A DNA stretch of 64,000 nucleotides from Candidatus Rokuibacteriota bacterium (lineage in GTDB: Bacteria; Methylomirabilota; Methylomirabilia; Rokubacteriales; CSP1-6): NCBI GenBank assembly GCA_003221695.1, contig QHSX01000058.1, positions 326 through 64,325 on the forward strand, read 5' to 3'. Below the pieces are notes generated by a model. That model was not told the DNA's origin and ran no database searches. It saw nothing but the letters and a program-made list of their open reading frames with translations. The first letter of the stretch is position 1, and the number at the start of each line of letters is the position of its first letter. Below, piece by piece: positions 1,338 to 37,144 of the stretch. Made by a program: the position numbers and the translations under genes.

Positions 1338-1496
1338 TTCGCCAGTCCAATCAGACCGAAATGTCGCAGCGCCTCTTCGATGGCCCCTCATGTTTTTCAG
1401 GCGGGCAGTGAGGATTACAGGGCGGGTGTTCTATTTCCCGGGGTTATCTTCCCCGGGTGAGCATCGTGCAAGTCTCTAAAAGAAAGAAGAAAAGCG

Positions 1497-1873
1497 CCAG
1501 AGAAGGCCTGTAAGCCGGGTTCTGTTCCCTGAGCTGGGCCCAGGGTGGCGGTCATTTCTCTAGGACGCCGGTTGCCCGGCGCCTCGAGCGGCCTAACCCG
1601 AGAGCACGGGCGGGCGACCCGATAGCTCTCCTATTCGGCCTTGCTCCGGGTGGGGTTTGCCGAGCCGACGCGGTCACCCGCGCCGCTGGTGAGCTCTTAC
1701 CTCACCGTTTCACCCTTACCGCCCTCGCGGACGGCGGTCTTTTTTCTGTGGCACTGGTCCGTGGGGTCTCCCCCCCTGGGCGTTACCCAGCACCCTGCCC
1801 TGTGGAGCCCGGACTTTCCTCCCGCCGCGTTGCCGCGACCGGCGACCGTCCAGCCTTCTCTGGCGCACCGACG
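1497..1873 (-). ncRNA. rnpB: RNase P RNA (bacterial type A)
   Basis: The reverse complement contains the universal GGAAAGTCCGGGCTCCACAGGGCAGGGTGCTGGGTAACGCCCAGGGGG block, GTGAAACGGTGAGGTAAGAGCTCACCAG, and the 3' ACAGAACCCGGCTTACAGGCC closing a long P1 helix with the 5' AGAAGGCTGG. Confidence 0.9.
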
Positions 1874-13141: not shown

Positions 13142-13216
13142 GTGGTTGGGGCGGGAGGATTCGAACCTCCGAATACGGGATCCAAAGTCCCGCGCCTTGC
13201 CACTTGGCCACGCCCC
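13142..13216 (-). tRNA. tRNA-Gln (anticodon TTG), with CCA encoded
   Basis: TGGGGCG acceptor with U1:A72 (a Gln hallmark), CGGGA-CTTTGGA-TCCCG anticodon arm, GGAGGTTCGAATCCTCC T-arm. Sits between ispE and prs. Confidence 0.9.
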
Positions 13217-13231
13217 ATCGTTCGCTTCTCC

Positions 13232-22053: not shown

Positions 22054-24417
22054 ATGCTCGGCGAGATCCTCGACGCTCTGCTGACCTCACCGTCGACTGG
22101 GCCGTGCATCACGGCGACCCGGCACTTCGCTCCCCGACCTCCCGTGCTCGTCCCGTTCCCGCCCTCGCTCGACGCGCGGATCGCTGACGGACTGCGCGCG
22201 CGGGGGATCCACGAGCTCTACTCGCACCAGGCGCGCGCGTGGGAGCTGATCGCGAAGGGTCATCACGTCGTCGTCGTGACGCCCACGGCCTCTGGCAAGA
22301 CGCTCTGCTACAACCTCCCCGCGCTCCAGTCCTTGCTGCAGCAACCCGACGTGCGCGTCCTCTATCTCTTCCCGACGAAGGCCCTCGCTCAGGATCAACT
22401 CGCGGAGCTCGAGGCGTTGGCGAAGACTCTGCCCGAGATGCGGATGTTCACCTACGACGGTGACACGCCTCAGGACGCGCGGCGCGCGGTCCGTGCACGG
22501 GCGAACCTCGTGCTGACGAATCCCGACATGCTTCACTCGGGGATCCTCCCGCACCATACCAAGTGGGCGACGCTCTTTCAGAATCTTCGCTACGTCGTCA
22601 TCGACGAGCTCCACGCGTACCGGGGCGTCTTCGGCAGTCATCTCGCCAACGTCCTCCGACGCCTCCATCGGATCTGTCGCCACTACGGCTCGGCTCCGCA
22701 GTTCGTCATGGCCTCCGCCACCATCGCCAACCCGGGCGAGCTGGCCCGGCTGCTCGTGGGGGAGCCCGTGGAGGAGATCGCCGAGAGCGGCGCGCCGACG
22801 GGCGACAAGACGTTTGTCTGTTACAACCCGCCCGTCGTGAACCCCGAGCTCGGCATCCGTGCGCCCTACCTGGGAGAGGCGGCGAAGCTCGCGATCCGGT
22901 TCATCCGGAATCGCATCGCGACGATCGTGTTCGCCCAGAGTCGCCTCGCGACTGAGGTGTTGCTGACCTCCGTCAAGAACGGTGTCGCCGACAAGACTGG
23001 CGACAGCGGGATCGTCCGCGGCTACCGCGGCGGCTATCTCCCGACGCGTCGGCGGGCGGTCGAGAAGGGGCTGCGAGAGGGCGAGGTGTTGGGCGTCGTT
23101 TCGACGAACGCGCTCGAGCTCGGCGTCGACATCGGCCACCTCGACGTCGCGGTCCTGGCCGGATACCCGGGGGCGATCGCCTCGCTCTGGCAGCAGGCGG
23201 GGCGTGCGGGCCGCCGGTCGGGCTCCTCGGCGGCCATCTTCGTCGCGACGAGCGCGCCGCTCGATCAGTTCATGGTCACCCACCCGGACTACCTCTTCGG
23301 TACGCCTCCCGAGCACGCGCGGGTGAACGCCGACAACCCGTTCATCCTGGTGAATCACCTCAAGTGTGCCGCCTTCGAGCTGCCGATCGGTCCTGGCGCC
23401 GCAGGCGAGGGAGTCGAGACGTTCGGCGATGCCGACGTCCGCCGCCTCCTCGCCGCACTCGAGGACGAGGGTGTCCTCCACCACGCGGGCTCCCGCTGGC
23501 ACTGGGCGGCCGAGACCTACCCCGCCGACCACATCTCGCTCCGGACGGTGACGAGCGACAATTTTCTTGTGATCGATACCACGGCGCGGGACGAGACGCA
23601 GACGAAGCGACGGCAGATCGTCGCCGAGGTGGATTGGGGGAGCGCGTTCGCGACGATCTACCCGAAGGCGATCTACCTTGTGGAGAGCGAGCCGTACGAG
23701 GTGCAGGAGCTGCACTGGCGCGAGGACGAGGAGAAGGTCGCCTACGTCAAGCGCGTCCGGGTGGACTACTTCACGGACGCGATCAGTGCCAAGGGCGTCT
23801 GGATTCTCCAGCGCCTGGCCGACCAGGCTCACGCCGGGTACCTCGCCGAGCAGGGCGAGGTGCTCGTCGCCGAGAAGGTCGTCGGCTTCAAGAAGATCAA
23901 GCTGGGGACGCTCGAGAACGTCGGCTCGGGCGAGGTCGAGCTCCCGCAGCAGGAGATGCAGACGACGGCGGCCTGGCTGACGGTAACGCCCGAGACGCTC
24001 GCGAGCGTCAGCGCCTCGCGCGAGGAGCTGATCGACGGGCTGCGCGCGGTGACGTACATGCTGCACCACCTGGCGCCGATCTTCCTCCTCTGCGACATCC
24101 GCGACCTGGGCTCGTGGCTCGGCGACACGACGCCCGCCGAGCCTGGCGCCGTCGCGACGCGCGACTCCGCAAAGCGACGGCTCATGAGCGCCGAGCGCTT
24201 CAACCCGACGATCTACCTCTACGACTCCCACGCGGGCGGGATCGGGCTCGCCGAGCGGCTGTTCGAGATCCTGCCGGACCTGCTCCGGCGCGGCCTCGAG
24301 ACGCTCTGCGCCTGCCCGTGCCCCGTCGGCTGTCCCTCCTGTGTGGGGCCCGTCAACGAGGTCGGTCGTAAGGCCAAGGCGACGGCCGGGGCGCTGCTGC
24401 GCGCCCTCGCCGGCTGA
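22054..24417 (+). CDS. DEAD/DEAH-box helicase with a C-terminal DUF1998 4-Cys domain (MrfA/YprA-like)
   Basis: Walker A TPTASGKT, DELH box, HRIGR-like motif VI, and C-terminal CACPCPVGCPSCVGP. Confidence 0.8.
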   Translation: MLGEILDALLTSPSTGPCITATRHFAPRPPVLVPFPPSLDARIADGLRARGIHELYSHQARAWELIAKGHHVVVVTPTASGKTLCYNLPALQSLLQQPDVRVLYLFPTKALAQDQLAELEALAKTLPEMRMFTYDGDTPQDARRAVRARANLVLTNPDMLHSGILPHHTKWATLFQNLRYVVIDELHAYRGVFGSHLANVLRRLHRICRHYGSAPQFVMASATIANPGELARLLVGEPVEEIAESGAPTGDKTFVCYNPPVVNPELGIRAPYLGEAAKLAIRFIRNRIATIVFAQSRLATEVLLTSVKNGVADKTGDSGIVRGYRGGYLPTRRRAVEKGLREGEVLGVVSTNALELGVDIGHLDVAVLAGYPGAIASLWQQAGRAGRRSGSSAAIFVATSAPLDQFMVTHPDYLFGTPPEHARVNADNPFILVNHLKCAAFELPIGPGAAGEGVETFGDADVRRLLAALEDEGVLHHAGSRWHWAAETYPADHISLRTVTSDNFLVIDTTARDETQTKRRQIVAEVDWGSAFATIYPKAIYLVESEPYEVQELHWREDEEKVAYVKRVRVDYFTDAISAKGVWILQRLADQAHAGYLAEQGEVLVAEKVVGFKKIKLGTLENVGSGEVELPQQEMQTTAAWLTVTPETLASVSASREELIDGLRAVTYMLHHLAPIFLLCDIRDLGSWLGDTTPAEPGAVATRDSAKRRLMSAERFNPTIYLYDSHAGGIGLAERLFEILPDLLRRGLETLCACPCPVGCPSCVGPVNEVGRKAKATAGALLRALAG

Positions 24418-24426
24418 CCCGCGTCG

Positions 24427-25623
24427 ATGCAATCGCTCGACGAGCTCCGCCGCGTGATCCGGCGTGTCGAGGCACGGCGGCCGCCGCGCCCCGCCGCGCC
24501 CCCCGCCCACGAAGTGTTGGGCGGCGAGGTCGTCGAGACGGGCGCCGGGCCGCTCGTTGTGGTGCGACGCGAGTACCCGCTGACGCACGTCCACGGCCGC
24601 GAGCCGCTCGCGCCGGCGTTCACGGCCCCGCTCGAGTTGCTCTCCACCGTGGCCCGCGCCGCGGCGCCGGCCGGGGATTCGCGCCGGCTCCTCTTCCTCG
24701 ACACCGAGACGACCGGCCTCGCGGGCGGCACGGGCACCTATGCCTTCCTCGTCGGGGTCGGGCGCCTCGACGGCGATCGGTTCGTCGTGGTGCAGTACTT
24801 CATGCGCGATTTCGACGAGGAGCCGGCGCTGCTTGCCGCGCTGGTGCCGCTCCTCGAGCAGGCCGCCGGGGTCGTCACCTTCAACGGCTCGGGCTTCGAC
24901 CTGCCGCTCCTCGAGACGCGCTTCGTGCTCGCCCGCCGCCGCTGGCCCACCCTGCTGCCCCACCTCGACCTTCTCCCGCCGGCGCGCCGCGTCTTCACGC
25001 TCCGCTGCGCCGACTGCCGGCTCACGACGCTCGAGCGCGAGGTCATCGGGCTCGAGCGTGAGAACGACGTGCCGGGCGCCCTGATCCCGGCACTCTACTT
25101 CGACTTCCTCCGCTCGCGCCGGGCGGCGCCGCTCGGGCGGGTCTTCGACCACAACCGCCACGACGTCCTCTCGCTGGTCGCGCTCCTCGGCTGGTTCGGC
25201 CGCGCCCTCGCGGCGCCCGACCACCTGGGCGCCGAGGATCTCGCCGGGCTGGGCCGGCTCTGGGAACCAGTGGATCTCGAGCAGGCACTCACGTGCTATC
25301 GGGCCGCGCTGGGCGGCGACCTCCCGGGCCGCACCGCCCACCGCGTACGCCTGCGCCTGGCCCGCTGGGAGAAGCGCGCCACGCGCTGGGACCGGGCGTG
25401 CGCGCTCTGGGAGGTCGCCTCGCGTCACGGCGCGTTCGATCGGGAGCCCTGGGAGGAGCTCGCGAAGTTTCACGAGCACCGCCGGCGTGATCTCCGCACG
25501 GCGCGGGCGACCGTCGCGCACGCGCTCGAGCTCGCCGACGCCGCGGGCGCGCCGCTACGGGTGATCGACGCCTTCGCGCATCGGTTGTCGCGCCTCGAGC
25601 GCCGCCTTCGCCGAGCCCTCTGA
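24427..25623 (+). CDS. DnaQ-like RNase H-fold exonuclease with a TPR-like C-terminus (MrfB/YprB-like)
   Basis: LLFLDTETTGLAGGTGTYAFLVGV...VVTFNGSGFDLPLLE exonuclease motifs I/II. Sits 10 nt after the helicase. Confidence 0.7.
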   Translation: MQSLDELRRVIRRVEARRPPRPAAPPAHEVLGGEVVETGAGPLVVVRREYPLTHVHGREPLAPAFTAPLELLSTVARAAAPAGDSRRLLFLDTETTGLAGGTGTYAFLVGVGRLDGDRFVVVQYFMRDFDEEPALLAALVPLLEQAAGVVTFNGSGFDLPLLETRFVLARRRWPTLLPHLDLLPPARRVFTLRCADCRLTTLEREVIGLERENDVPGALIPALYFDFLRSRRAAPLGRVFDHNRHDVLSLVALLGWFGRALAAPDHLGAEDLAGLGRLWEPVDLEQALTCYRAALGGDLPGRTAHRVRLRLARWEKRATRWDRACALWEVASRHGAFDREPWEELAKFHEHRRRDLRTARATVAHALELADAAGAPLRVIDAFAHRLSRLERRLRRAL

Positions 25624-28720: not shown

Positions 28721-28885
28721 GCTCCCCTGGCACGCTGACACTGAGAGTTAGAGCCCGCGCGATGCGCGGGCGACGGCCCGGGTCGTGGCGAGCGCCAAGG
28801 CCCGGGCCGTATCTGTTTTGCGGCGTTGACGTTGCGGCGGCTTTGGATGTTTGATAGCGTTAGGCGCTCAACTCAGTTTTGGGAG

Positions 28886-29233
28886 GTGAGTCCACTGCGA
28901 CCATACGAGATTCTGGTGATCGTCGACCCGCGTCCGACGGACGAGGAAGTCGCCGCGCTGCTCGCGCAGCTCGCCGAGCAGCTCAAGGCGCTCGGTGCCG
29001 AGGTCGCTAAGGTCGACAACTGGGGGAAGCGCCGGCTCGCGTACGATATCCGCAAGCAACGGGAGGGCACGTACGCGGTCTTCGAGGTCTCTGCCGAGCC
29101 GTCCATGGTGAAGGAGTTCGAGCGGCACCTCCGCCTCAATGAGAACGTGCTGCGCTTCCTCTCGACGCGAGTCCCGATCCGCAAGAAGGCTCGGCCGGCG
29201 AAAACTCCAGAGGTGCTCGAGGAGGTCGGTTAA
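28886..29233 (+). CDS. rpsF: 30S ribosomal protein S6
   Basis: RPYEILVIVDP...GKRRLAYDI..GTYAVFEV. The start is either GTG at 28886 or CTG at 28895, which lies 7 nt after GGAGGTG. Confidence 0.85.
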   Translation: MSPLRPYEILVIVDPRPTDEEVAALLAQLAEQLKALGAEVAKVDNWGKRRLAYDIRKQREGTYAVFEVSAEPSMVKEFERHLRLNENVLRFLSTRVPIRKKARPAKTPEVLEEVG

Positions 29234-29646
29234 TGGCGAGCCTCAATAAGGTCTTCCTGATCGGCAACCTGACCCGCCCCCCGGAACTGCGCTACACGCC
29301 GAGCGGCACCGCCGTGGCCGACCTGCGGCTCGCGGTCAACCGCAATTACACGACGCAGGGGGGCGACAAGCGCGAGGAGACCTCGTTCATCACGGTCGTC
29401 GTTTGGAGCAAGCAGGCGGAGACCTGCGGCGAGTACCTCGACAAGGGCAGCCCGATCCTGGTCGAAGGCCGCCTCCAGACACGCGAGTGGGAAGGTAAGG
29501 ACGGCCAGAAACGGACCGTGGTGGAAGTGGTGGCCGAGCGCGTCCAGTTCATGGGGCGCGGCAAGCCTGCAGCGCCGGTCGCCGTGCCGGCCGCCGAGTC
29601 GTTCGCGGAAGAGACGCGGCCCGCTGAGGACGACGTCCCCTTCTAA
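29233..29646 (+). CDS. ssb: Single-stranded DNA-binding protein
   Basis: OB-fold MASLNKVFLIGNLTRPPELRYTPSG, and an acidic C-terminal tip DDVPF. Confidence 0.9.
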   Translation: MASLNKVFLIGNLTRPPELRYTPSGTAVADLRLAVNRNYTTQGGDKREETSFITVVVWSKQAETCGEYLDKGSPILVEGRLQTREWEGKDGQKRTVVEVVAERVQFMGRGKPAAPVAVPAAESFAEETRPAEDDVPF

Positions 29647-29670
29647 CGGGGTACCAGGGAGGAACGAGAG

Positions 29671-29919
29671 ATTCCGACAGTCCAGAAGCCTGTCAAGCGC
29701 CGCCGGTTCGGCCGGCGGAAGGTGTGCAAGTTTTGCGCCGACAAAGTCGACCTGGTCGACTACAAAGACGTGCGCCGGCTCAGAAACTTCGTCAGCGACC
29801 GCGGCAAGATCATTCCGCGCAGGATCTCGGGAAGCTGCGCGCGCCACCAGCGCCAGCTGACGCACGCGATCAAGCGCGCCCGCACGGTCGCCCTCCTGCC
29901 ATACCTGGCGACGGAGTAG
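29671..29919 (+). CDS. rpsR: 30S ribosomal protein S18 (start upstream of the tracked ORF, possibly ATT)
   Basis: ...[49 protein letters not shown]. No ATG/GTG/TTG lies between the ssb stop and the conserved N-terminus. ATT at 29671 sits 8 nt after GGAGG. Confidence 0.8.
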
Positions 29920-29930
29920 GACGGAGAGCG

Positions 29931-30374
29931 ATGCGAGTCATTCTGCTGGACGATGTCTCCAAGGTCGGGCGCCGTGGCGAGGTTCGCGACGTCTCCGACG
30001 GCTACGCGCGCAACTATCTGATCCCGAAGAAGCTCGCCCTCAGCGCCACCACGGGCAACCTCAAGAACCTCGAGCAGATCAAGCGGCAGCAAGACGCCAA
30101 GGCAGATCGCATCAAGGGCGAGGCGGAGGCGTTGCGCAACCGGATCGACGCGCTCGCGTACGAGGAGCGCCGGCAGGCCTCCGAGGAGGGCAAGCTCTTC
30201 GGCTCGGTGACCGCGCAGGACATCGTGGAGTTCCTGGAACGGCACGCGATCAAGGTCGAGCGCCGGCGGGTCGCGCTCGACGAACCGATCAAGTCGCTCG
30301 GCGAGACCGTGGTGTCGATTCGGCTGCACCACGACGTCGCGGCGCAACTCAAAGTCAGCGTCGTCCGCGAATAG
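29931..30374 (+). CDS. rplI: 50S ribosomal protein L9
   Basis: MRVILLDDVSKVGRRGEVRDVSDGYARNYLIPKKLA. Confidence 0.9.
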   Translation: MRVILLDDVSKVGRRGEVRDVSDGYARNYLIPKKLALSATTGNLKNLEQIKRQQDAKADRIKGEAEALRNRIDALAYEERRQASEEGKLFGSVTAQDIVEFLERHAIKVERRRVALDEPIKSLGETVVSIRLHHDVAAQLKVSVVRE

Positions 30375-30493: not shown

Positions 30494-30597
30494 GTTTCGT
30501 CACCGTGACGGTGTTCTCAGCAGATTTTTCTTGACCGAATCGAAGCGGGGCGCTCAACATCGAGTCACATGCTGACCACTTGCGGTGAGTCTCGCCT

Positions 30598-33500
30598 ATG
30601 AGCCCTCTGGAATTTCCGGCGCGGATCCCACCGCACAACCTCGACGCTGAACGCGCGGTCCTTGGCGCCATTCTCCTGGAAGGCCGCGAGACGCTCCCGC
30701 GCGTGATCGAGGTGCTCCGGCCGTCCGATTTCTACACGGAGGCCCACCGGGCGGCGTACGGGACGATGCTGCGCCTCTTCGACCGCGGCGAGCCCGTCGA
30801 TCTCATCACGCTCAGCGAGGAGCTCCGCCGTACGGATCAGCTCGAGTTCGTCGGGGGGGCCGCCGCGCTCGCGCTCCTCGTGGAGCAGGCCTCGATCGCG
30901 GCCCACCTCATCGCCTACGCCCAGATCGTCCGCGACATGGCGGTGCTGCGCGAGCTGATCCAGACGTCCACGCAGATCATCGGCCAGGCCTTCGAGGCGA
31001 AGGAGGATGTCCAGGCCCTGGTCGACGACGCCGAACGCCGGATCTTCAGTCTGGCCGAGCGGCGGCTCGAGGGCAGCGCGCTTCCGATCGGCAAGATTCT
31101 CAAGAACACCTTCGAGTACATCGAGCGGCTCTACGAGCGGAAGGAGCATGTCACCGGCATCGCGACGGGGTTCGAGAAGCTCGACCTCGAGACCTCGGGG
31201 CTCCAGCCCTCGGACTTCATCATCATCGCGGGTCGGCCGAGCATGGGGAAGGCCCAGCCCCTCGACGCCCAGGTCAAGACGGTCGCGGGGTGGAAGCGGA
31301 TGGGCGATCTGAAGCTGGGCGACGAGCTCGCGTCCGTGGACGGCCGGCGCTCTCTGGTGAGCGGGATCTTCCCCCAGGGTCCTGAACAGGTCTACCGCGT
31401 CACCTTCTCCGATGGCCGTTCCACGGAGGCGAGCGCCCAACACCTCTGGCGCGTCCATTACCGTAATTGGCGTGAGCCCCGGACGCTCTCCAGCGAGCGC
31501 GTGGCGCAGATGTTGCGGGTCAAGCGATACCGGCACCGTCTGTGGATCGACGTGCCGTCCGGCGTCCACGGTCACGCCGAGGCGCTTCCTATCGATCCGT
31601 GGTTGCTGGGCGCGCTGCTCGGTGACGGGAAGCTTTCGGGGACCAGTCTGATCTTTTCGACGTCCGATGCCGCGATGCTGGAGCAATTTCTCGAGCGGAC
31701 ACGAGAGGGCTTCGCCCTGCGCGCCGTCGGCGGCTACGACTGGCGTATCGTCCAGGCGACGGGCGCGCATCGCCGGGGTACCCAGGGCGTCTCGCCGAAC
31801 CGACTGATGGAAGCGCTCCGCGGGCTCGGCCTCTGGGGAATCCGTAGCGATGAGAAGTTCATCCCAGACATCTACCTGAATGCCTCACGCGAAGCGCGTC
31901 TCGATGTCGTGCGCGGCCTCATGGATACCGACGGCTGGGTCGAGCGCTGGGGGAGCGCGCGGTTCTGCTCCACGAGCGAGCGCCTGGCGCGGAACGTGGC
32001 TGAACTGGTGCGCTCCCTTGGCGGCTGGTGTTCGGTTCGAGGCAGGCGGACAACGTACAGTTATCGCGGAGAGAAGAAGGCCGGCAGACGGGCCTTCGTG
32101 TGCAACGTTCACTACGCGGACCCCCAAGCGATCTTCGCGCCGTCGCGGAAGCGCGACAGAGTGTTGGCGGCGCCGCGGCGACGGTGGCGGCCCGTGTTCG
32201 TCTCGGTCGAGCCTACGCGAGTGACGGACACCCAGTGCATCGCGGTCACCCATCCGTCCCGGCTCTACGTCACCGATGACTACGTGGTGACTCACAACAC
32301 GGCGTTCGCGCTCAACGTCGCGCAGCACGTGGGCATCCATCTGCGCGGCCGGGTACTGGTGCTGAGCCTCGAGATGTCCGCCCAGCAGATCGTCCAGCGG
32401 ATGCTTTGCGCCGAGGCCAAGGTGGACTCGCAGGCGGTGCGCACCGGCTACCTCTCCTCCTCGGACTGGCACCGCCTGACCGCGGCAGCCGGCCGTCTCA
32501 GCGAGGCGCAGATCTTCATCGACGACAGCCCCGGGCTCAGCGTGCTCGAGGCGCGGGCCAAGGCGCGACGGATGAAGGCCGAGCACGGGCTCGAGCTCAT
32601 GATCATCGATTACCTCCAGCTCATGCGGGGGCGCGCGGCGATGGAGAGCCGCCAGCAGGAGATTTCGGAGATCTCCCGGTCGCTCAAGGCGCTCGCGAAG
32701 GAGCTGAACGTGCCGGTGGTCGCCCTCTCCCAGCTCTCGCGCGCGGTGGAGTCGCGCGCCACCCGCGACTTCCGGCCGCAGCTCTCGGACCTCAGAGAAT
32801 GCGTGACCGGCGACACCCTGGTCGTCCTCGCTGATGGGCGACGAATCCAGATCTGCGATCTCGTGGACGGCGCGCCCGAAGTCCTCGCGATGTCTCCGGC
32901 CGGCAAGATCATCATGACCAAGAGCGAACGGATCTGGCGGGTGGGGATACGGCCAGTCTTCGAGATCCGGCTCGCGAGCGGGCGGATCATCCGGGCGACC
33001 GGGCAGCATCGCCTCTTCTCCGCGCAGGGGTGGATGACGGTGAACGAGCTTTCGGCCGGTGATCGCCTTGCGATCGCGAGGAGGCTGCCGGAACCATTAT
33101 TCCCTGACTGCTGGCCGGATCGGCGCGTCGTACTCCTCGGGCAGTTGATCGGGGACGGCAGCTATCTGATTCATCAGCCGTTGCGATACACGACCAGTTC
33201 AGAGGACAACAGCCGCGTTGTCGCTGAGGCGGCAAGCGAGGAGTTCGGGTGTCGGGTCAGCCGCCATGCCGGCCGTGATGGCTGGCACCAGCTCGTCATC
33301 AGTGGGAACGGGAATCGCTGGTGCCACCGGGGCGTTGGCGGATGGCTTCGGCAGCTGGGGATCTTCGGTCAACGGTCCTATCAGAAGCGGATTCCCGAGG
33401 CGGCCTTTCGGCTCTCGACCCGACAGGTCGCCCTGCTCCTGCGCCATCTGTGGGCGACGGACGGAACCATCGCCCCACGCAGAGGCGGGAAGGGGAGCCA

Positions 33501-34278
33501 CGGGGTCTCATATGGCACCAACAGTCCAGGATTGGCGAGAGACGTGGCGGCGTTACTGCTGCGACTCGGCATCGTGGCGAGGATCTCCTCTGCCCGAAAG
33601 GGCAGCTACCGCCCCTCCTTCTTCGTCACGGTCTCGGGCGCCGCGGACGAGCGGCGGTTTCTCGAGACGGTTGGCGCGTTTGGTCCCCGAGGACCCCAGG
33701 CGCAGCGCCTGAAGGCCTTGCTGAAGGACTGCAAGGCCAACACCAACGTCGACACGCTCCCCGTTCAAGATTTCGAGCGGGTGAAGGAATTAATGCGCGT
33801 GCGGGGCATCTCCCAGCGACGGATGACCGTGATGCGGGGAACAGCGTACGGGGGAAGTTCCCATTTCCGATTTGCGCCGTCACGGGCCGTGTTGCAGCAG
33901 TACGCCGAGATCCTCGATGACGACGGGCTTCGCGCGCGCGCAGCCAGCGATCTGTTCTGGGATCGCATCATTGCCATCGAGCCCTCCGGGGAGGAGGAGG
34001 TCTTCGATCTCACCGTGCCCGGCCCGGCGTCCTGGCTCGCCGACGGAATCGTCAGCCACAACTCCGGGGCGTTGGAGCAGGACGCCGACCTGATCCTGTT
34101 CCTCTATCGCCAGTCGCAGTACAAGGAGGACCTCCCGCCGGACGAGGCCAACGTCGCCGACGTCATCATCGGCAAGCAGCGCAACGGCCCCGTCGGCACG
34201 GTCAAGGTCGTGTTCCTGCCCCAGTACGCGCGGTTCGAGAACGTCGCGGAGTCCCACCGGCAGCCGCAGCCGTTTTAG
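30598..34278 (+). CDS. dnaB: Replicative DNA helicase DnaB interrupted by two inteins (extein about 456 aa)
   Basis: Extein N-terminal domain ...Walker A GRPSMGK|[intein1]|TAFALNVAQ ... RPQLSDLRE|[intein2]|SGALEQDADLILFLYRQ. Confidence 0.95.
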   Translation: MSPLEFPARIPPHNLDAERAVLGAILLEGRETLPRVIEVLRPSDFYTEAHRAAYGTMLRLFDRGEPVDLITLSEELRRTDQLEFVGGAAALALLVEQASIAAHLIAYAQIVRDMAVLRELIQTSTQIIGQAFEAKEDVQALVDDAERRIFSLAERRLEGSALPIGKILKNTFEYIERLYERKEHVTGIATGFEKLDLETSGLQPSDFIIIAGRPSMGKAQPLDAQVKTVAGWKRMGDLKLGDELASVDGRRSLVSGIFPQGPEQVYRVTFSDGRSTEASAQHLWRVHYRNWREPRTLSSERVAQMLRVKRYRHRLWIDVPSGVHGHAEALPIDPWLLGALLGDGKLSGTSLIFSTSDAAMLEQFLERTREGFALRAVGGYDWRIVQATGAHRRGTQGVSPNRLMEALRGLGLWGIRSDEKFIPDIYLNASREARLDVVRGLMDTDGWVERWGSARFCSTSERLARNVAELVRSLGGWCSVRGRRTTYSYRGEKKAGRRAFVCNVHYADPQAIFAPSRKRDRVLAAPRRRWRPVFVSVEPTRVTDTQCIAVTHPSRLYVTDDYVVTHNTAFALNVAQHVGIHLRGRVLVLSLEMSAQQIVQRMLCAEAKVDSQAVRTGYLSSSDWHRLTAAAGRLSEAQIFIDDSPGLSVLEARAKARRMKAEHGLELMIIDYLQLMRGRAAMESRQQEISEISRSLKALAKELNVPVVALSQLSRAVESRATRDFRPQLSDLRECVTGDTLVVLADGRRIQICDLVDGAPEVLAMSPAGKIIMTKSERIWRVGIRPVFEIRLASGRIIRATGQHRLFSAQGWMTVNELSAGDRLAIARRLPEPLFPDCWPDRRVVLLGQLIGDGSYLIHQPLRYTTSSEDNSRVVAEAASEEFGCRVSRHAGRDGWHQLVISGNGNRWCHRGVGGWLRQLGIFGQRSYQKRIPEAAFRLSTRQVALLLRHLWATDGTIAPRRGGKGSHGVSYGTNSPGLARDVAALLLRLGIVARISSARKGSYRPSFFVTVSGAADERRFLETVGAFGPRGPQAQRLKALLKDCKANTNVDTLPVQDFERVKELMRVRGISQRRMTVMRGTAYGGSSHFRFAPSRAVLQQYAEILDDDGLRARAASDLFWDRIIAIEPSGEEEVFDLTVPGPASWLADGIVSHNSGALEQDADLILFLYRQSQYKEDLPPDEANVADVIIGKQRNGPVGTVKVVFLPQYARFENVAESHRQPQPF
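31252..32298 (+). mobile_element. Intein 1 (349 aa) in the DnaB P-loop, with a LAGLIDADG homing endonuclease; class-3-like (Ala1, block-F Cys)
   Basis: Begins AQPLDAQ. Block B ...TEASAQHLW. LAGLIDADG motifs LLGALLGDGK and VVRGLMDTDGWV. Block F TDTQCIAVT. Ends VVTHN, followed by extein Thr. Confidence 0.8.
32800..34062 (+). mobile_element. Intein 2 (421 aa), canonical class 1 (Cys1...HN/Ser+1) with a LAGLIDADG homing endonuclease
   Basis: Begins CVTGDTLVVLADG. LAGLIDADG motifs LLGQLIGDGS and LLRHLWATDGT. Ends LADGIVSHN|S. Confidence 0.85.
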
Positions 34279-34312
34279 GTACAGGCGCGCTGCGCGCAGT
34301 AATATTGGCCCC

Positions 34313-36133
34313 GTGCGCCTGCACCGGCTCAAACGGCTCTTCGTCGGCACCCCGCTCCCCACCGCGCAGCAACGGCACGAGCGCCTCGGCAAGGCCACCG
34401 CGCTCGCGGTGTTCGCCTCGGATCCGCTCTCCTCGGTGGCGTACGCGACCGAGGAAATCCTGTTCGTCCTGGTCCTGGCCGGCTCCGCTGCGCTGAGCTA
34501 CTCGCTCCCGATCGGGATTGGAATCGCCGCCCTGATCCTGATCGTCATCAGCTCCTACCGGCAGACGATCCGGGCATACCCGCAGGGGGGCGGCGCCTAC
34601 ATCGTGGCGAAGGACAACCTCGGCGTCTTTCCGTCGCTCGTCGCGGCCGCAGCGTTGCTCATCGACTATGTGCTCACCGTGGCCGTGTCGGTGGCGGCCG
34701 GCGTGGCGGCGGTGACGTCGGCCGTTCCCGAACTCTTTCCCTACCGCACGTGGCTCTGCGTCGTTGCCGTCGTCGGGGTCGCCGTCACCAATCTGCGCGG
34801 CGTGCGCGAGTCCGGCCAGATTTTCGCGGCACCGACCTACCTGTTCGTCGTGAGCGTCCTGGGCATGGTGGCGTGGGGCGTTGGCGGCGCCGCGCTCGGC
34901 ATGCTTCCCGCCAAGCCGTACGAGCCGCACGCGCCGGGGCTCGAGGGCATCGGGCTCTTCCTCTTCCTCCGCGCGTTTTCCGCGGGCTGCACGGCGCTCA
35001 CCGGCGTGGAGGCCGTCTCCGACGGGGTGCCGGCCTTCAAGCCGCCCGAGGCGCACAACGCCCGGATCGTCATGGCCTGGCTCGGCGCCATCTCGGTCAC
35101 CATGTTCCTCGGGATCACCTACCTCGCGTACGACCTTGGCATCGTGCCGGGCGGCAATGAGACGGTCGTCTCGAAGATCGCCCGCCAGCTCTTCGGCACC
35201 GGGCCCCTGTACTTCGAGCTCCAGGCCGTGACGATGCTCATTCTCTTGTTGGCCGCGAACACGTCCTTCGCCGACTTCCCGCGCCTGTCGTTCTTCCTGG
35301 CCCGCGACCGGTTCATCCCCCGCCAGTTCGGCACTCAGGGCGATCGCCTCGTCTTCTCCAACGGCATCGTGATCCTGGCGGGCCTGGCGAGCGTGCTCCT
35401 CGTCGTCTTCCAGGGCGACACGCACGCCCTGCTGCCGCTCTACGCCATCGGCGTCTTCGTCTCGTTCACGGTGTCCCAGAGCAGTATGGTGCGCCGGTGG
35501 CTCCGCCTCAGGGAGACGGGGTGGTGGTGGCGTGTGTGGCTCAACGGGATCGGCGCCTTCGTCACCGGCGTGGTCCTCCTGACGCTCGCGGTGACGAAGT
35601 TCACCGAGGGTGCGTGGATCGTCGTCCTGCTGATCCCGACGCTCGTGGCCGCGTTTCTGACGGTGCGCCGCCACTACGAGGAAGTCGCCGCGCAGCTCTC
35701 GCTCGAGGGCTTCGAGCCGCCCCCACCCATGACGAACACCGTGCTCGTGCTCGTTGGCGACATCCACCGCGGCGTGATCAAGGCCATTCAGTACGCGCAG
35801 TCGCTCTCGCCCACCGCCAAGGCCGTGTTCGTCGAGATCGACCCCGAGCGGACGCGGAAGCTGGAGGAGAAGTGGGGGAAGTGGGGGATGGGCGTCCCGC
35901 TGATCGTCCTGTCGTCGCCCTATCGGTCGTTGCTCGGGCCGCTGCTCGAGTACATCGATCACCTCCAGAAGGACGACGAGAACCACGTCGTGACGATCGT
36001 GCTCCCGGAGTTCATTCCGGCGCGCTGGTGGCAGCTCGGCCTGCACAACCAGACGGCGCTGCTCATCAAGGGCGCCATGCTCTTCCGGAAGAACGTCACC
36101 GTGACCGACGTCCCCTACCACCTGAAGCACTAG
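34313..36133 (+). CDS. APC-superfamily transporter of the KimA (K+ uptake) type, with a C-terminal cytoplasmic domain
   Basis: N-terminus RLKRLFVGTPL...DPLSSVAYATEEIL...SYRQTIRAYPQGGGAYIVAKDNLG, closely resembling KimA/YdaO-type permeases. Confidence 0.65.
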   Translation: MRLHRLKRLFVGTPLPTAQQRHERLGKATALAVFASDPLSSVAYATEEILFVLVLAGSAALSYSLPIGIGIAALILIVISSYRQTIRAYPQGGGAYIVAKDNLGVFPSLVAAAALLIDYVLTVAVSVAAGVAAVTSAVPELFPYRTWLCVVAVVGVAVTNLRGVRESGQIFAAPTYLFVVSVLGMVAWGVGGAALGMLPAKPYEPHAPGLEGIGLFLFLRAFSAGCTALTGVEAVSDGVPAFKPPEAHNARIVMAWLGAISVTMFLGITYLAYDLGIVPGGNETVVSKIARQLFGTGPLYFELQAVTMLILLLAANTSFADFPRLSFFLARDRFIPRQFGTQGDRLVFSNGIVILAGLASVLLVVFQGDTHALLPLYAIGVFVSFTVSQSSMVRRWLRLRETGWWWRVWLNGIGAFVTGVVLLTLAVTKFTEGAWIVVLLIPTLVAAFLTVRRHYEEVAAQLSLEGFEPPPPMTNTVLVLVGDIHRGVIKAIQYAQSLSPTAKAVFVEIDPERTRKLEEKWGKWGMGVPLIVLSSPYRSLLGPLLEYIDHLQKDDENHVVTIVLPEFIPARWWQLGLHNQTALLIKGAMLFRKNVTVTDVPYHLKH

Positions 36134-36202
36134 CCGCGGAGCGCTGGAGAACGTCGCGCGTCGGCGCGCGCCGACGGAGGCGCCGCGGCAACTCTGGTAC
36201 AC

Positions 36203-37144
36203 TTGATGGCCCGTGACCACGCGATGAACATCGTCCTCGCCCCGGACGGGCCGCTCCATGCCGGCGCGACGCTCGCGCGCTACCACCTGTGGGGAGAAGA
36301 TCCCGCGAACCGCCTCGCGGACGGCGCGTTCCTGCGTGTGCTCCGACGTCCCGGACGGCTCGTGCCCTACGAGGTCCGTCCCACCGGTCCGGTGGACGAC
36401 GCGCGACTCGCGGTGCGCATCCCGCGCGCACGCGACGCGGCGACGGGCGCGGCCGTCGCGGCGGAGGTCCGCCGCATCTTCGGCCTCGACTTCGATCTCT
36501 CCGGTTTCTACCGAATGGCAAAGAGCGATCCCGTCCTGACCGCCCTCGTCGAGCCGCTCTACGGGATGCGGCCGACGCTCGCGCCGACGCCGCTCGAGAT
36601 GCTCGTGGGGTCGATCAGCGCCCAGCAGGTCAATCTTCAGTTCGCCTTCGCATGCCGGGCCCGCCTCGTGCGCCGGTATGGGACGCCCGTCGCCCTCGGC
36701 CGTCACACCGTCTGGGCGTTCCCGGACGCCGCGACGCTCGCGCGCGGGGGGTTGCGGGACTTGCGCGTGATGAAGTTCTCGCGCCGCAAAGGCGAGTACA
36801 TCCGCGACCTCGCGCGGGCCGTCGTCTCGGGCCGGCTCGACCTCGACGCGCTCGCGGCGGCGCCGAGCGAGGCCGTGATCGAGCGGCTCACGCGGCAGCG
36901 CGGGCTTGGCCGGTGGACCGCGGACTGGTTCCTCGCCCGCTGCCTCGGCCGGGGCGACGTCTGCCCGGCGGGCGATCTCGGCGTGCGCCGGGCCTTCGAA
37001 CACTTCTACGGCCACGCGCGGACGCGGAGCGAGGAGGCGATCCGGCGCCGGGCACGCGGGTGGGGCGAGTACCAGAGCCTCGCCATCCACTACCTCCTCG
37101 CGGGGATGCGCCTCGAGCGGCGCGCCGCGGGCGGCGGCGCATGA
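36203..37144 (+). CDS. DNA-3-methyladenine glycosylase II (AlkA-like, HhH-GPD)
   Basis: AlkA N-domain plus HhH-GPD LGRWTADWFLARCLGRGDVCPAGDLGVRRAF. Confidence 0.8.
   Translation: MMARDHAMNIVLAPDGPLHAGATLARYHLWGEDPANRLADGAFLRVLRRPGRLVPYEVRPTGPVDDARLAVRIPRARDAATGAAVAAEVRRIFGLDFDLSGFYRMAKSDPVLTALVEPLYGMRPTLAPTPLEMLVGSISAQQVNLQFAFACRARLVRRYGTPVALGRHTVWAFPDAATLARGGLRDLRVMKFSRRKGEYIRDLARAVVSGRLDLDALAAAPSEAVIERLTRQRGLGRWTADWFLARCLGRGDVCPAGDLGVRRAFEHFYGHARTRSEEAIRRRARGWGEYQSLAIHYLLAGMRLERRAAGGGA

Follow-up and report, generated by a model that had tools for sequence, protein, structure and literature searches.

A chromosomal dnaB gene of a Rokubacteria-like bacterium carrying a class 3-type and a class 1 intein

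How is a replicative helicase obtained from a gene that is interrupted twice? This question is raised by the dnaB gene on the plus strand of the DNA analysed here, a 64-kb stretch with a GC content of ~70% (the window in this text), whose product of 1226 amino acids (aa) contains two long inserts. Our reading is that the chromosomal dnaB of a Rokuibacteriota bacterium has been invaded at two known DnaB intein sites, by an intein of the rarer class 3 chemistry at site b and by a class 1 intein in motif H4, that both are excised to give the helicase, and that each bears a LAGLIDADG endonuclease. We put the probability of this reading at about 90%. The source is taken to be a Rokubacteria/Methylomirabilota-like bacterium because the window is syntenic with, and 91% identical at the nucleotide level to, contig L001 (QHSA01000177) of a Candidatus Rokuibacteriota metagenome-assembled genome (MAG).

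The interrupted gene and the class of its two inteins

The precursor consists of three extein segments and two inserts (a slash within a motif marks the point of insertion; HMM, hidden Markov model).

30598..34278, plus strand: dnaB precursor open reading frame (ORF), 1226 aa plus stop; NCBIfam NF005852, the intein-containing DnaB equivalog, at 971.9 bits for the unspliced precursor (curated cutoff 780), with Pfam DnaB, DnaB_C, LAGLIDADG_3 and Intein_splicing
30598..31251, plus strand: extein segment 1, aa 1-218, the DnaB N-terminal domain and the start of the ATPase domain, with Walker-A GRPSMGK as its last residues (boundaries, HMM)
31252..32298, plus strand: intein 1, 349 aa (precursor aa 219-567), containing a LAGLIDADG endonuclease domain and located at site b of DnaB (P-loop, K/T) (homologues, PDB, fold)
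32299..32799, plus strand: extein segment 2, aa 568-734, from the Walker-A Thr (Thr+1) to LSDLRE of motif H4 (boundaries, HMM)
32800..34062, plus strand: intein 2, 421 aa (precursor aa 735-1155), which bears a LAGLIDADG endonuclease domain and interrupts motif H4 of DnaB (RE/SG) (Pfam, TIGR HMMs, PDB 1MI8 and 4O1R, block residues)
34063..34275, plus strand: extein segment 3, aa 1156-1226, from Ser+1 (SGALEQDAD) (boundaries, HMM)

The ORF is intact, without frameshift or internal stop. When the inserts of 349 and 421 aa are removed, the remaining 456-aa extein matches the DnaB equivalog NF004384 at 574.2 bits (cutoff 525), with residues 8-452 on positions 7-448 of the 452-position model, and TIGR00665 at 553.1 bits (cutoff 385). 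Both junctions are seamless, because the insert-free extein matches NF004384 as one unbroken stretch, and removal of the inserts restores both Walker-A GRPSMGKT (GRPSMGK/TAFALN) and motif H4 (LSDLRE/SGALEQDAD). A first-pass annotation made from the letters of the window had resolved the ORF into a 456-aa DnaB extein with two insertions; its boundaries, 31252-32298 and 32800-34062, were reproduced to the base, and the profile alignments to NF004384 and TIGR00665 agree with the junctions that it proposed.

Class 3 inteins are defined by a non-nucleophilic residue 1, a WCT triplet (Trp at B:12, Cys at F:4 and Thr at G:5) and Thr or Ser at position +1 (PMC2807308). The corresponding residues of intein 1 were compared in an alignment of 73 full-length homologues taken from species-representative genomes.

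31252..31254, plus strand: residue 1, Ala, non-nucleophilic (precursor Ala219); Ala in 69 of 73 family members
31441..31449, plus strand: block B His64-Leu65-Trp66, with His at B:10 and the WCT-triplet Trp at B:12; His and Trp each in 73 of 73
32236..32238, plus strand: Cys329, block F:4 in TQCIAV, the predicted initiating nucleophile; 73 of 73, aligned with Cys320 of the Bethlehem phage intein and Cys118 of Mycobacterium smegmatis DnaBi1
32290..32298, plus strand: block G Thr347 (G:5, of the WCT triplet)-His348-Asn349 (family alignment)

The junctions and blocks read GRPSMGK/A...AQHLW...TQCIAV...THN/TAFALN. Invariant in all 73 members are His B:10, Trp B:12, Cys F:4, Thr G:5, the terminal His and Asn, and Thr+1, which is the Walker-A Thr (Thr568). 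Residue 1 is Ala in all but four members (Leu 2, Ser 1, Gly 1), and the Walker-A Lys directly precedes the intein in 72 of the 73. The first-pass annotation had claimed that no Cys or Ser nucleophile stands at the N-terminal junction. This was borne out, with the boundary fixed by Walker-A GK/T: no alternative boundary restores Walker-A GKT, and position 1 of the intein is neither Cys nor Ser nor Thr.

Among solved structures, the best sequence matches of intein 1 are 6BS8 (M. smegmatis; phmmer E value 5e-07), 6RIX and 6RIY (M. chimaera), all of them class 3 DnaB inteins. In these alignments AQHLW pairs with AQHQW, TQCIAV with VRCVEV, and the terminal THN is aligned. An AlphaFold model of intein 1, built with 29 homologues, reached a mean confidence (predicted local distance difference test, pLDDT) of 93.4 and a predicted template modelling score (pTM) of 0.90, and is composed of a HINT domain and a LAGLIDADG domain. 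Over the whole chain, the best fold matches of the model are intein endonucleases of the PI-SceI type (template modelling score, TM, 0.73; E value 4.5e-16). Its splicing domain matches 6BS8, 6RIX and 6RIY in Foldseek with a probability of 1.00 and 31-35% identity, and the inserted domain matches I-DmoI.

The Bethlehem phage intein aligns with intein 1 from end to end (E value 3e-32, 29% identity), and both LAGLIDADG motifs are matched. Intein 1 also matches its residues His65, Trp67, Cys320, Thr339, His340, Asn341 and Thr+1. By every criterion of sequence and predicted fold, intein 1 is thus assigned to the class 3 type. The earlier claim to this effect, which named Ala1, the Trp of AQHLW, the Cys of TQCIAV, THN and Thr+1, found all of these at their places, and conservation in the 73 homologues and homology to the Bethlehem and 6BS8 inteins point the same way. 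One detail of it needs correction: W, C and T are all present, but the T of the triplet is Thr347 at G:5, within THN, and not Thr+1, although both Thr residues are there.

Intein 2 was recognised by HMMs and by its block residues.

32800..32802, plus strand: Cys1 nucleophile (block residues)
32998..33009, plus strand: block B TxxH, Thr67...His70 (block residues)
34006..34008, plus strand: block F:4 Asp403, a typical class 1 residue (block residues)
34057..34062, plus strand: C-terminal His420-Asn421 (block residues)

Its junctions read LSDLRE/C...SHN/SGALEQDAD. The scores are 71.3 for PF14890 Intein_splicing (cutoff 35.8), 46.2 for TIGR01445 (24.5) and 23.7 for TIGR01443 (15.6). Ten full-length homologues at the same RE/SGA site keep Cys1, TxxH, Asp F:4, HN and Ser+1; the one exception is that Thr at B:7 is replaced by Ser in L049. 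Of the solved structures, the DnaB mini-inteins of Ssp (1MI8, E value 1.5e-20) and Npu (4O1R, 1.9e-19) come closest. The family is very common, with at least 1767 database proteins from many phyla at E values up to 1e-10 and ~60% identity. Intein 2 also corresponds in position to the intein of NF005852, in which the extein runs up to about position 397 and positions 398-826 represent intein 2. On HMM scores and block residues, intein 2 is classified as a standard class 1 intein of the DnaB H4-site family, in line with the earlier description of a standard Cys1...HN/Ser intein.

The genes before dnaB help to identify it.

28826..30374, plus strand: rpsF, ssb, rpsR (29722-29919) and rplI, upstream of dnaB (gene context)

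The order rpsF-ssb-rpsR-rplI is the usual chromosomal surrounding of the replicative helicase gene; groEL is also found upstream. By the profile matches and the order rpsF-ssb-rpsR-rplI-dnaB, the interrupted gene is the chromosomal replicative dnaB. Neither another intein nor a second dnaB was found within the 64-kb window.

Endonuclease domains, distribution and mobility

The first-pass annotation had counted two LAGLIDADG motifs in each intein and considered them potentially active homing endonucleases. The motifs were found as follows, and all four catalytic Asp residues are retained across the two inteins.

31603..31635, plus strand: intein 1 motif 1, LLGALLGDGKL, catalytic Asp125 (motif residues)
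31906..31941, plus strand: intein 1 motif 2, VVRGLMDTDGWV, catalytic Asp227 (motif residues; Pfam LAGLIDADG_3 22.8 bits)
33133..33165, plus strand: intein 2 motif 1, LLGQLIGDGSY, Asp119 (motif residues)
33436..33471, plus strand: intein 2 motif 2, LLRHLWATDGTI, Asp221 (motif residues)

The motifs start at residues 118 and 219 of intein 1 and at residues 112 and 213 of intein 2, a spacing of 101 in both. Single-chain LAGLIDADG enzymes of inteins typically have two such motifs ~100 residues apart, each with an acidic residue before Gly at its end, and an alpha-beta-beta-alpha-beta-beta-alpha fold. PF14528 (LAGLIDADG_3) scores 74.8 bits in intein 2, and its 22.8 bits in intein 1 are borderline. 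Simple Nei-Gojobori estimates, in several pairs of which the synonymous rate dS exceeds 1 and is saturated, give a ratio of nonsynonymous to synonymous rates (dN/dS) of 0.10-0.26 for the endonuclease domains against Rokubacteria relatives, similar to the splicing domains; the extein has 0.07-0.26 overall and 0.07-0.12 against its closest relatives, L001-L003. The GC content at third codon positions (GC3) is 0.82 in intein 1 and 0.79 in intein 2, compared with 0.93 in the extein and 0.90-0.95 in neighbouring genes.

The window was compared with 80 loci fetched from species-representative genomes. Both inteins occur together in 16 of the 80, which belong to Rokubacteria, Casimicrobiaceae, other Burkholderiales, Lysobacter and Desulfobulbaceae, and intein 2 is full-length in 10 of these 16. 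Full-length homologues of intein 1 are also present in the DnaB of cultured Burkholderia, Trinickia and Paraburkholderia. Among close relatives of the N-extein (62-100% identity, fragments that reach past the P-loop), intein 1 is present in 50 and the GK-T site is empty in 31. Across phyla, identity is higher in intein 1 than in the extein, with 66% versus 46% for a MAG of Burkholderiales and 62% versus 41% for one of Proteobacteria; the reverse (52% versus 84%) is seen in one relative within Rokubacteria.

Relatives of intein 1 extend beyond DnaB. In phages, 865 records have full-length relatives with 37-40% identity, hosted by terminases, helicases and primase-helicases, and relatives also occur inside the P-loops of PhoH and RecD2. 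Such a spread of P-loop class 3 inteins is known, and a phage link has been proposed (PMC5050341). At the Walker-A GK/T of other NTPases, full-length class 3 relatives with 32-40% identity were seen in L070, L074/L075, L076/L079, P0100 and P0109-P0118. The one in L070, an Opitutae MAG, lies in a Pfam-confirmed RecD2 helicase, that of L074/L075 lies within a GAAGGGK/T protein, and others are in PhoH-family proteins. In the Binatia MAGs L076 and L079 the class 3 intein has almost no recognisable extein and may be an orphan or a fragment.

The family of intein 1 also includes broken and shortened members. The intein is split across reading frames in L068, L069 and L080 (pseudogenes or assembly errors). 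Its endonuclease is partly or wholly deleted in L062, L064, L066 and L067, which have forms of 302-316 aa, and L078 lacks residues ~118-194. These forms show decay towards mini-inteins within the same family.

A direct view of intein 2 gain or loss is offered by the syntenic contig L001, from which the intein is precisely missing (1263 bp) and whose extein is 96.5% identical. When the two exteins are compared, the densest differences are centred on the intein-2 site, where 24 nucleotides contain 8, each of them synonymous, compared with 1.76 on average. Of 1321 such 24-nucleotide segments, just 6 reach 8 differences, and every one of these overlaps the intein-2 junction. The regions compared around this site were L001 4940-5031 and window positions 32755-32799 plus 34063-34107. 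The intein-free H4 site of L001 reads ...GACCTTCGTGAA/TCGGGCGCCCTCGAG..., and the spliced junction of the window reads ...GACCTCAGAGAA/TCCGGGGCGTTGGAG... Next to the junction, the window has AGR (Arg) and TTG (Leu) codons in common with the intein-2-bearing L002 and L003; intein-2-free alleles mostly have CGN and CTC at these codons, with the exception of the intein-free L004, which has AGG. The synonymous cluster fits a co-conversion tract left during homing, or immunisation of the target site.

Taken from their sequences, the single-chain LAGLIDADG endonucleases of both inteins were probably functional recently, which would account for the patchy, horizontally spread distribution. A stronger version, which we regard as possible and hold only tentatively, is that both endonucleases are active now and that the inteins continue to spread among the Rokubacteria of soil and groundwater, with intein 2 as a fairly recent homing acquisition and the synonymous cluster as the trace of co-conversion or immunisation. 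If true, the locus would be a natural system in which to follow the invasion of one essential gene by inteins of two chemistries, and any conditional control of replication by splicing.

The alternative that survives best is that the LAGLIDADG domain of one intein or of both is by now a relic that has lost its activity, and that the inteins are inherited vertically, with patchiness produced by losses and not by ongoing homing. Many intein endonucleases are inactive, mini-inteins exist among the relatives (intein 2 in L012, L018, L047 and L066; intein 1 in L062, L064, L066, L067 and L078), and within Rokubacteria the identity of intein 1 mostly follows that of the extein. However, the four catalytic Asp residues are kept, dN/dS of the endonuclease domains (0.10-0.26) is not above that of the splicing domains, and both inteins have the lower GC3. 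Losses alone also sit poorly with synonymous changes clustered exactly at the intein-2 site relative to an intein-free relative, and with intein identity above extein identity across phyla. We consider the relic explanation unlikely, though it deserves to be kept in view.

Between window and L001, intein 1 is unevenly diverged: its splicing-domain parts have dS 0.54 and dN 0.11, and its endonuclease domain has dS 0.24 and dN 0.05, with an extein dS of 0.29. The greater divergence of the splicing domain may mean that this intein is a mosaic or has recombined.

Proposed splicing of the precursor

The route from precursor to helicase was drawn from experimentally studied relatives (PMC6195587, PMC2807308). 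For intein 1, Cys329 (F:4) would attack the Lys218-Ala219 peptide bond to give a block-F thioester branch, the N-extein would be handed to Thr+1, cyclisation of Asn349 would release the intein, and an O-to-N shift would form the GK-T peptide bond. For intein 2, an N-S shift at Cys1 would be followed by transfer of the N-extein onto Ser+1, cyclisation of Asn421 and an O-to-N shift to the peptide bond. The precursor should be inactive because intein 1 splits the ATP-binding loop and intein 2 splits the DNA-binding H4 loop, and we infer that both excisions would be needed for the 456-aa helicase.

A different chemistry is conceivable for intein 1, namely splicing without Cys329 as the first nucleophile, for example by direct attack of Thr+1 as in class 2 (KlbA-type) inteins with Ala1. 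Classes 2 and 3 both begin with a non-nucleophile such as Ala (PMC2807308), and the chemistry of intein 1 is predicted from its sequence. Class 2 inteins, however, have no WCT triplet and carry Asp at F:4 (PMC2807308), whereas Trp, Cys and Thr are invariant in the family of intein 1, and its nearest characterised relatives, M. smegmatis DnaBi1 and the Bethlehem intein, absolutely need the F:4 Cys (PMC6195587, PMC2807308). The class 2 route is therefore very improbable.

We give next to no credence to the idea that intein 1 has decayed and does not splice, in the manner of the Arth_1007 intein pseudogene of Arthrobacter FB24, and sits in a dead or non-essential dnaB copy with another helicase gene at work: an intein that has a WDT triplet and does not function is on record (PMC3196547; triplet noted in PMC2807308), the split forms in L068, L069 and L080 are related, and the view is limited to 64 kb of the genome, but here the ORF is open over 3.7 kb at 70% GC, every catalytic residue is kept, purifying selection is strong on the extein (dN/dS 0.07-0.12 against close relatives) and on both intein domains, and the gene is in the canonical rpsF-ssb-rpsR-rplI-dnaB position with no second dnaB in the window.

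Excision of both inteins from a working dnaB, each with its endonuclease, is thus the reading that we prefer, and the following points weigh against it. Its support is entirely computational, with the splicing products, branched intermediates and DNA cleavage all predicted. The saturation of dS noted above limits the estimates of selection, and past purifying selection is no proof of present endonuclease activity. An intein-free second dnaB could lie elsewhere in the genome, beyond the 64-kb window. Block B:7 of intein 1 (31432-31434) is Ser, where the other 72 family members include 55 with Cys and 15 with Thr; the Bethlehem intein has Ser at B:7 too, and its mutation is tolerated (PMC2807308). 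Finally, Pfam Intein_splicing has no match in intein 1, in which only LAGLIDADG_3 is detected, just above its cutoff (22.8 versus 22.5 bits). In the block and HMM analysis suggested with the first-pass annotation, intein 2 is above the intein HMM cutoffs, and the blocks of intein 1, unseen by Intein_splicing, came from the homologue alignment. As the Pfam model is blind to intein 1, the identity of this intein rests on homologues, PDB matches and fold, and the missed match is a limit of that model and does not count against the assignment.

Known inteins compared and the remainder of the window

The first-pass annotation had called the presence of two mechanistically different inteins in one helicase unusual. 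This does not hold. The same pair is known from M. smegmatis (PMC6195587), double-intein DnaBs have been described in other bacteria (PMC4760082), and 16 of the 80 loci compared here have both; the arrangement of the window is one already described in mycobacteria that occurs in many other genomes, a correct but ordinary case.

In M. smegmatis DnaB, a class 3 P-loop intein at site b is accompanied by a class 1, endonuclease-bearing H4 intein at site a (Kelley et al. 2018, PMC6195587). The likeness to that protein (DnaBi1 and DnaBi2; 6BS8) covers the host protein, the two sites and the two classes, and in both cases both inteins must, by our reading of the window, splice to give the helicase. 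By sequence, intein 1 has no better match in the PDB than 6BS8, with 35% identity over the aligned splicing domain. The differences lie in the class 3 partner and the host. DnaBi1, a mini-intein of 139 aa, lacks an endonuclease and shows Ser+1 and a B:7 Asp, whereas intein 1 has 349 aa, a LAGLIDADG domain, Thr+1 and Ser at B:7, and the host is Rokubacteria-like here and an actinobacterium in M. smegmatis. Mycobacterial DnaBi1 is reported to respond to redox state and to zinc. The redox trap of M. smegmatis, a Cys48-Cys118 disulfide, was also sought in intein 1. Its oxidative switch is not conserved, because the position of Cys48 is occupied by Val; the other three Cys residues of intein 1 are all in the endonuclease domain. 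The Ser at B:7, a position that adjoins the catalytic His, is unique to the window in the intein 1 family; in the majority of the family the Cys at B:7 would be near the F:4 Cys, and a redox-sensitive disulfide might form there.

In the survey of Novikova et al. 2016 (PMC4760082), no bacterial protein is richer in inteins than DnaB, which accounts for 317 of them; its insertion sites a and c belong to motif H4, and site b belongs to the P-loop. Joint occupation of b and a is noted there for a number of DnaBs from Actinobacteria and Cyanobacteria, such as that of Demetria terragena. The window resembles these double-intein DnaBs, since the P-loop and motif H4 of the ATPase domain are both occupied, and differs in its host, as the ten bacterial clades of that survey for DnaB inteins exclude Rokubacteria (PMC4760082). 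A literature search for inteins in Rokubacteria found none.

Like intein 2, the Ssp and Npu DnaB mini-inteins (1MI8, 4O1R) are of class 1 and located in DnaB motif H4, but they are mini-inteins, engineered or natural, without endonuclease. The Ssp intein is inserted two residues downstream (RESG/S), which would correspond to the second H4 site in the nomenclature of Novikova et al. The placing of intein 2 at site a, and not at site c two residues away, follows the literature description (PMC6195587, PMC4760082) and not a direct mycobacterial alignment; there were no mycobacterial names among the top 120 intein 2 homologues of the protein search.

The prototype of class 3, the Bethlehem intein (Tori et al. 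2010, PMC2807308), combines a class 3 splicing domain with a LAGLIDADG endonuclease and is similar to intein 1 in length (341 versus 349 aa). It differs in its location in a phage terminase, at another site, and in having Pro and not Ala as residue 1. Both splicing and endonuclease activity have been demonstrated for it, whereas intein 1 is known from sequence. A Bethlehem "DnaB" intein was looked for in the annotated DnaB-like gp62, which proved to be intein-free; the terminase gene, gp11 of AY500153, is the one that carries the class 3 intein. This is evidently the TerL1-c intein, whose gene is numbered Bethlehem gp10 in PMC5050341. PI-SceI and PI-PfuI, which the intein 1 model matches best in fold over its whole chain, share the HINT domain with an inserted LAGLIDADG domain, but are class 1 inteins of unrelated hosts with 13-16% sequence identity.

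For annotation, the 1226-aa product is an intein-containing replicative DNA helicase, whose site b is predicted to hold a class 3 intein and whose motif H4 holds one of class 1. The modest additions made here are that the mycobacterial pair of class 3 P-loop and class 1 H4 inteins reaches Rokubacteria/Methylomirabilota and several proteobacterial lineages, that the class 3 partner retains its endonuclease domain in this case, and that both inteins are polymorphic in presence and absence among close relatives, with a footprint at the intein-2 homing site. These findings leave the understanding of inteins unchanged.

Other features of the window were noted in passing. A minus-strand ORF of 962 aa (34202-37090) overlaps a plus-strand gene for a 606-aa amino-acid-permease-like membrane protein (34313-36133; PF13520, 87.7 bits). 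It is probably spurious, like the antisense ORFs across dnaB (e.g. 30565-31770 and 31885-33009), because of the 70% GC. RNA genes and two further protein-coding genes were located as follows.

1495-1861, minus strand: bacterial RNase P RNA class A, 309.6 bits
3099-3172, minus strand: tRNA-Met (CAT)
13143-13217, minus strand: tRNA-Gln (TTG)
22054-24417, plus strand: DEAH-box helicase resembling TIGR03817, 648 bits, under the cutoff of 874
24427-25623, plus strand: 398-aa protein with an RNase_H_2 / PolB-exonuclease-like domain (PF13482, 123.5 bits), directly after the DEAH-box helicase

The DEAH-box helicase and the 398-aa RNase_H_2 protein may be functionally linked.

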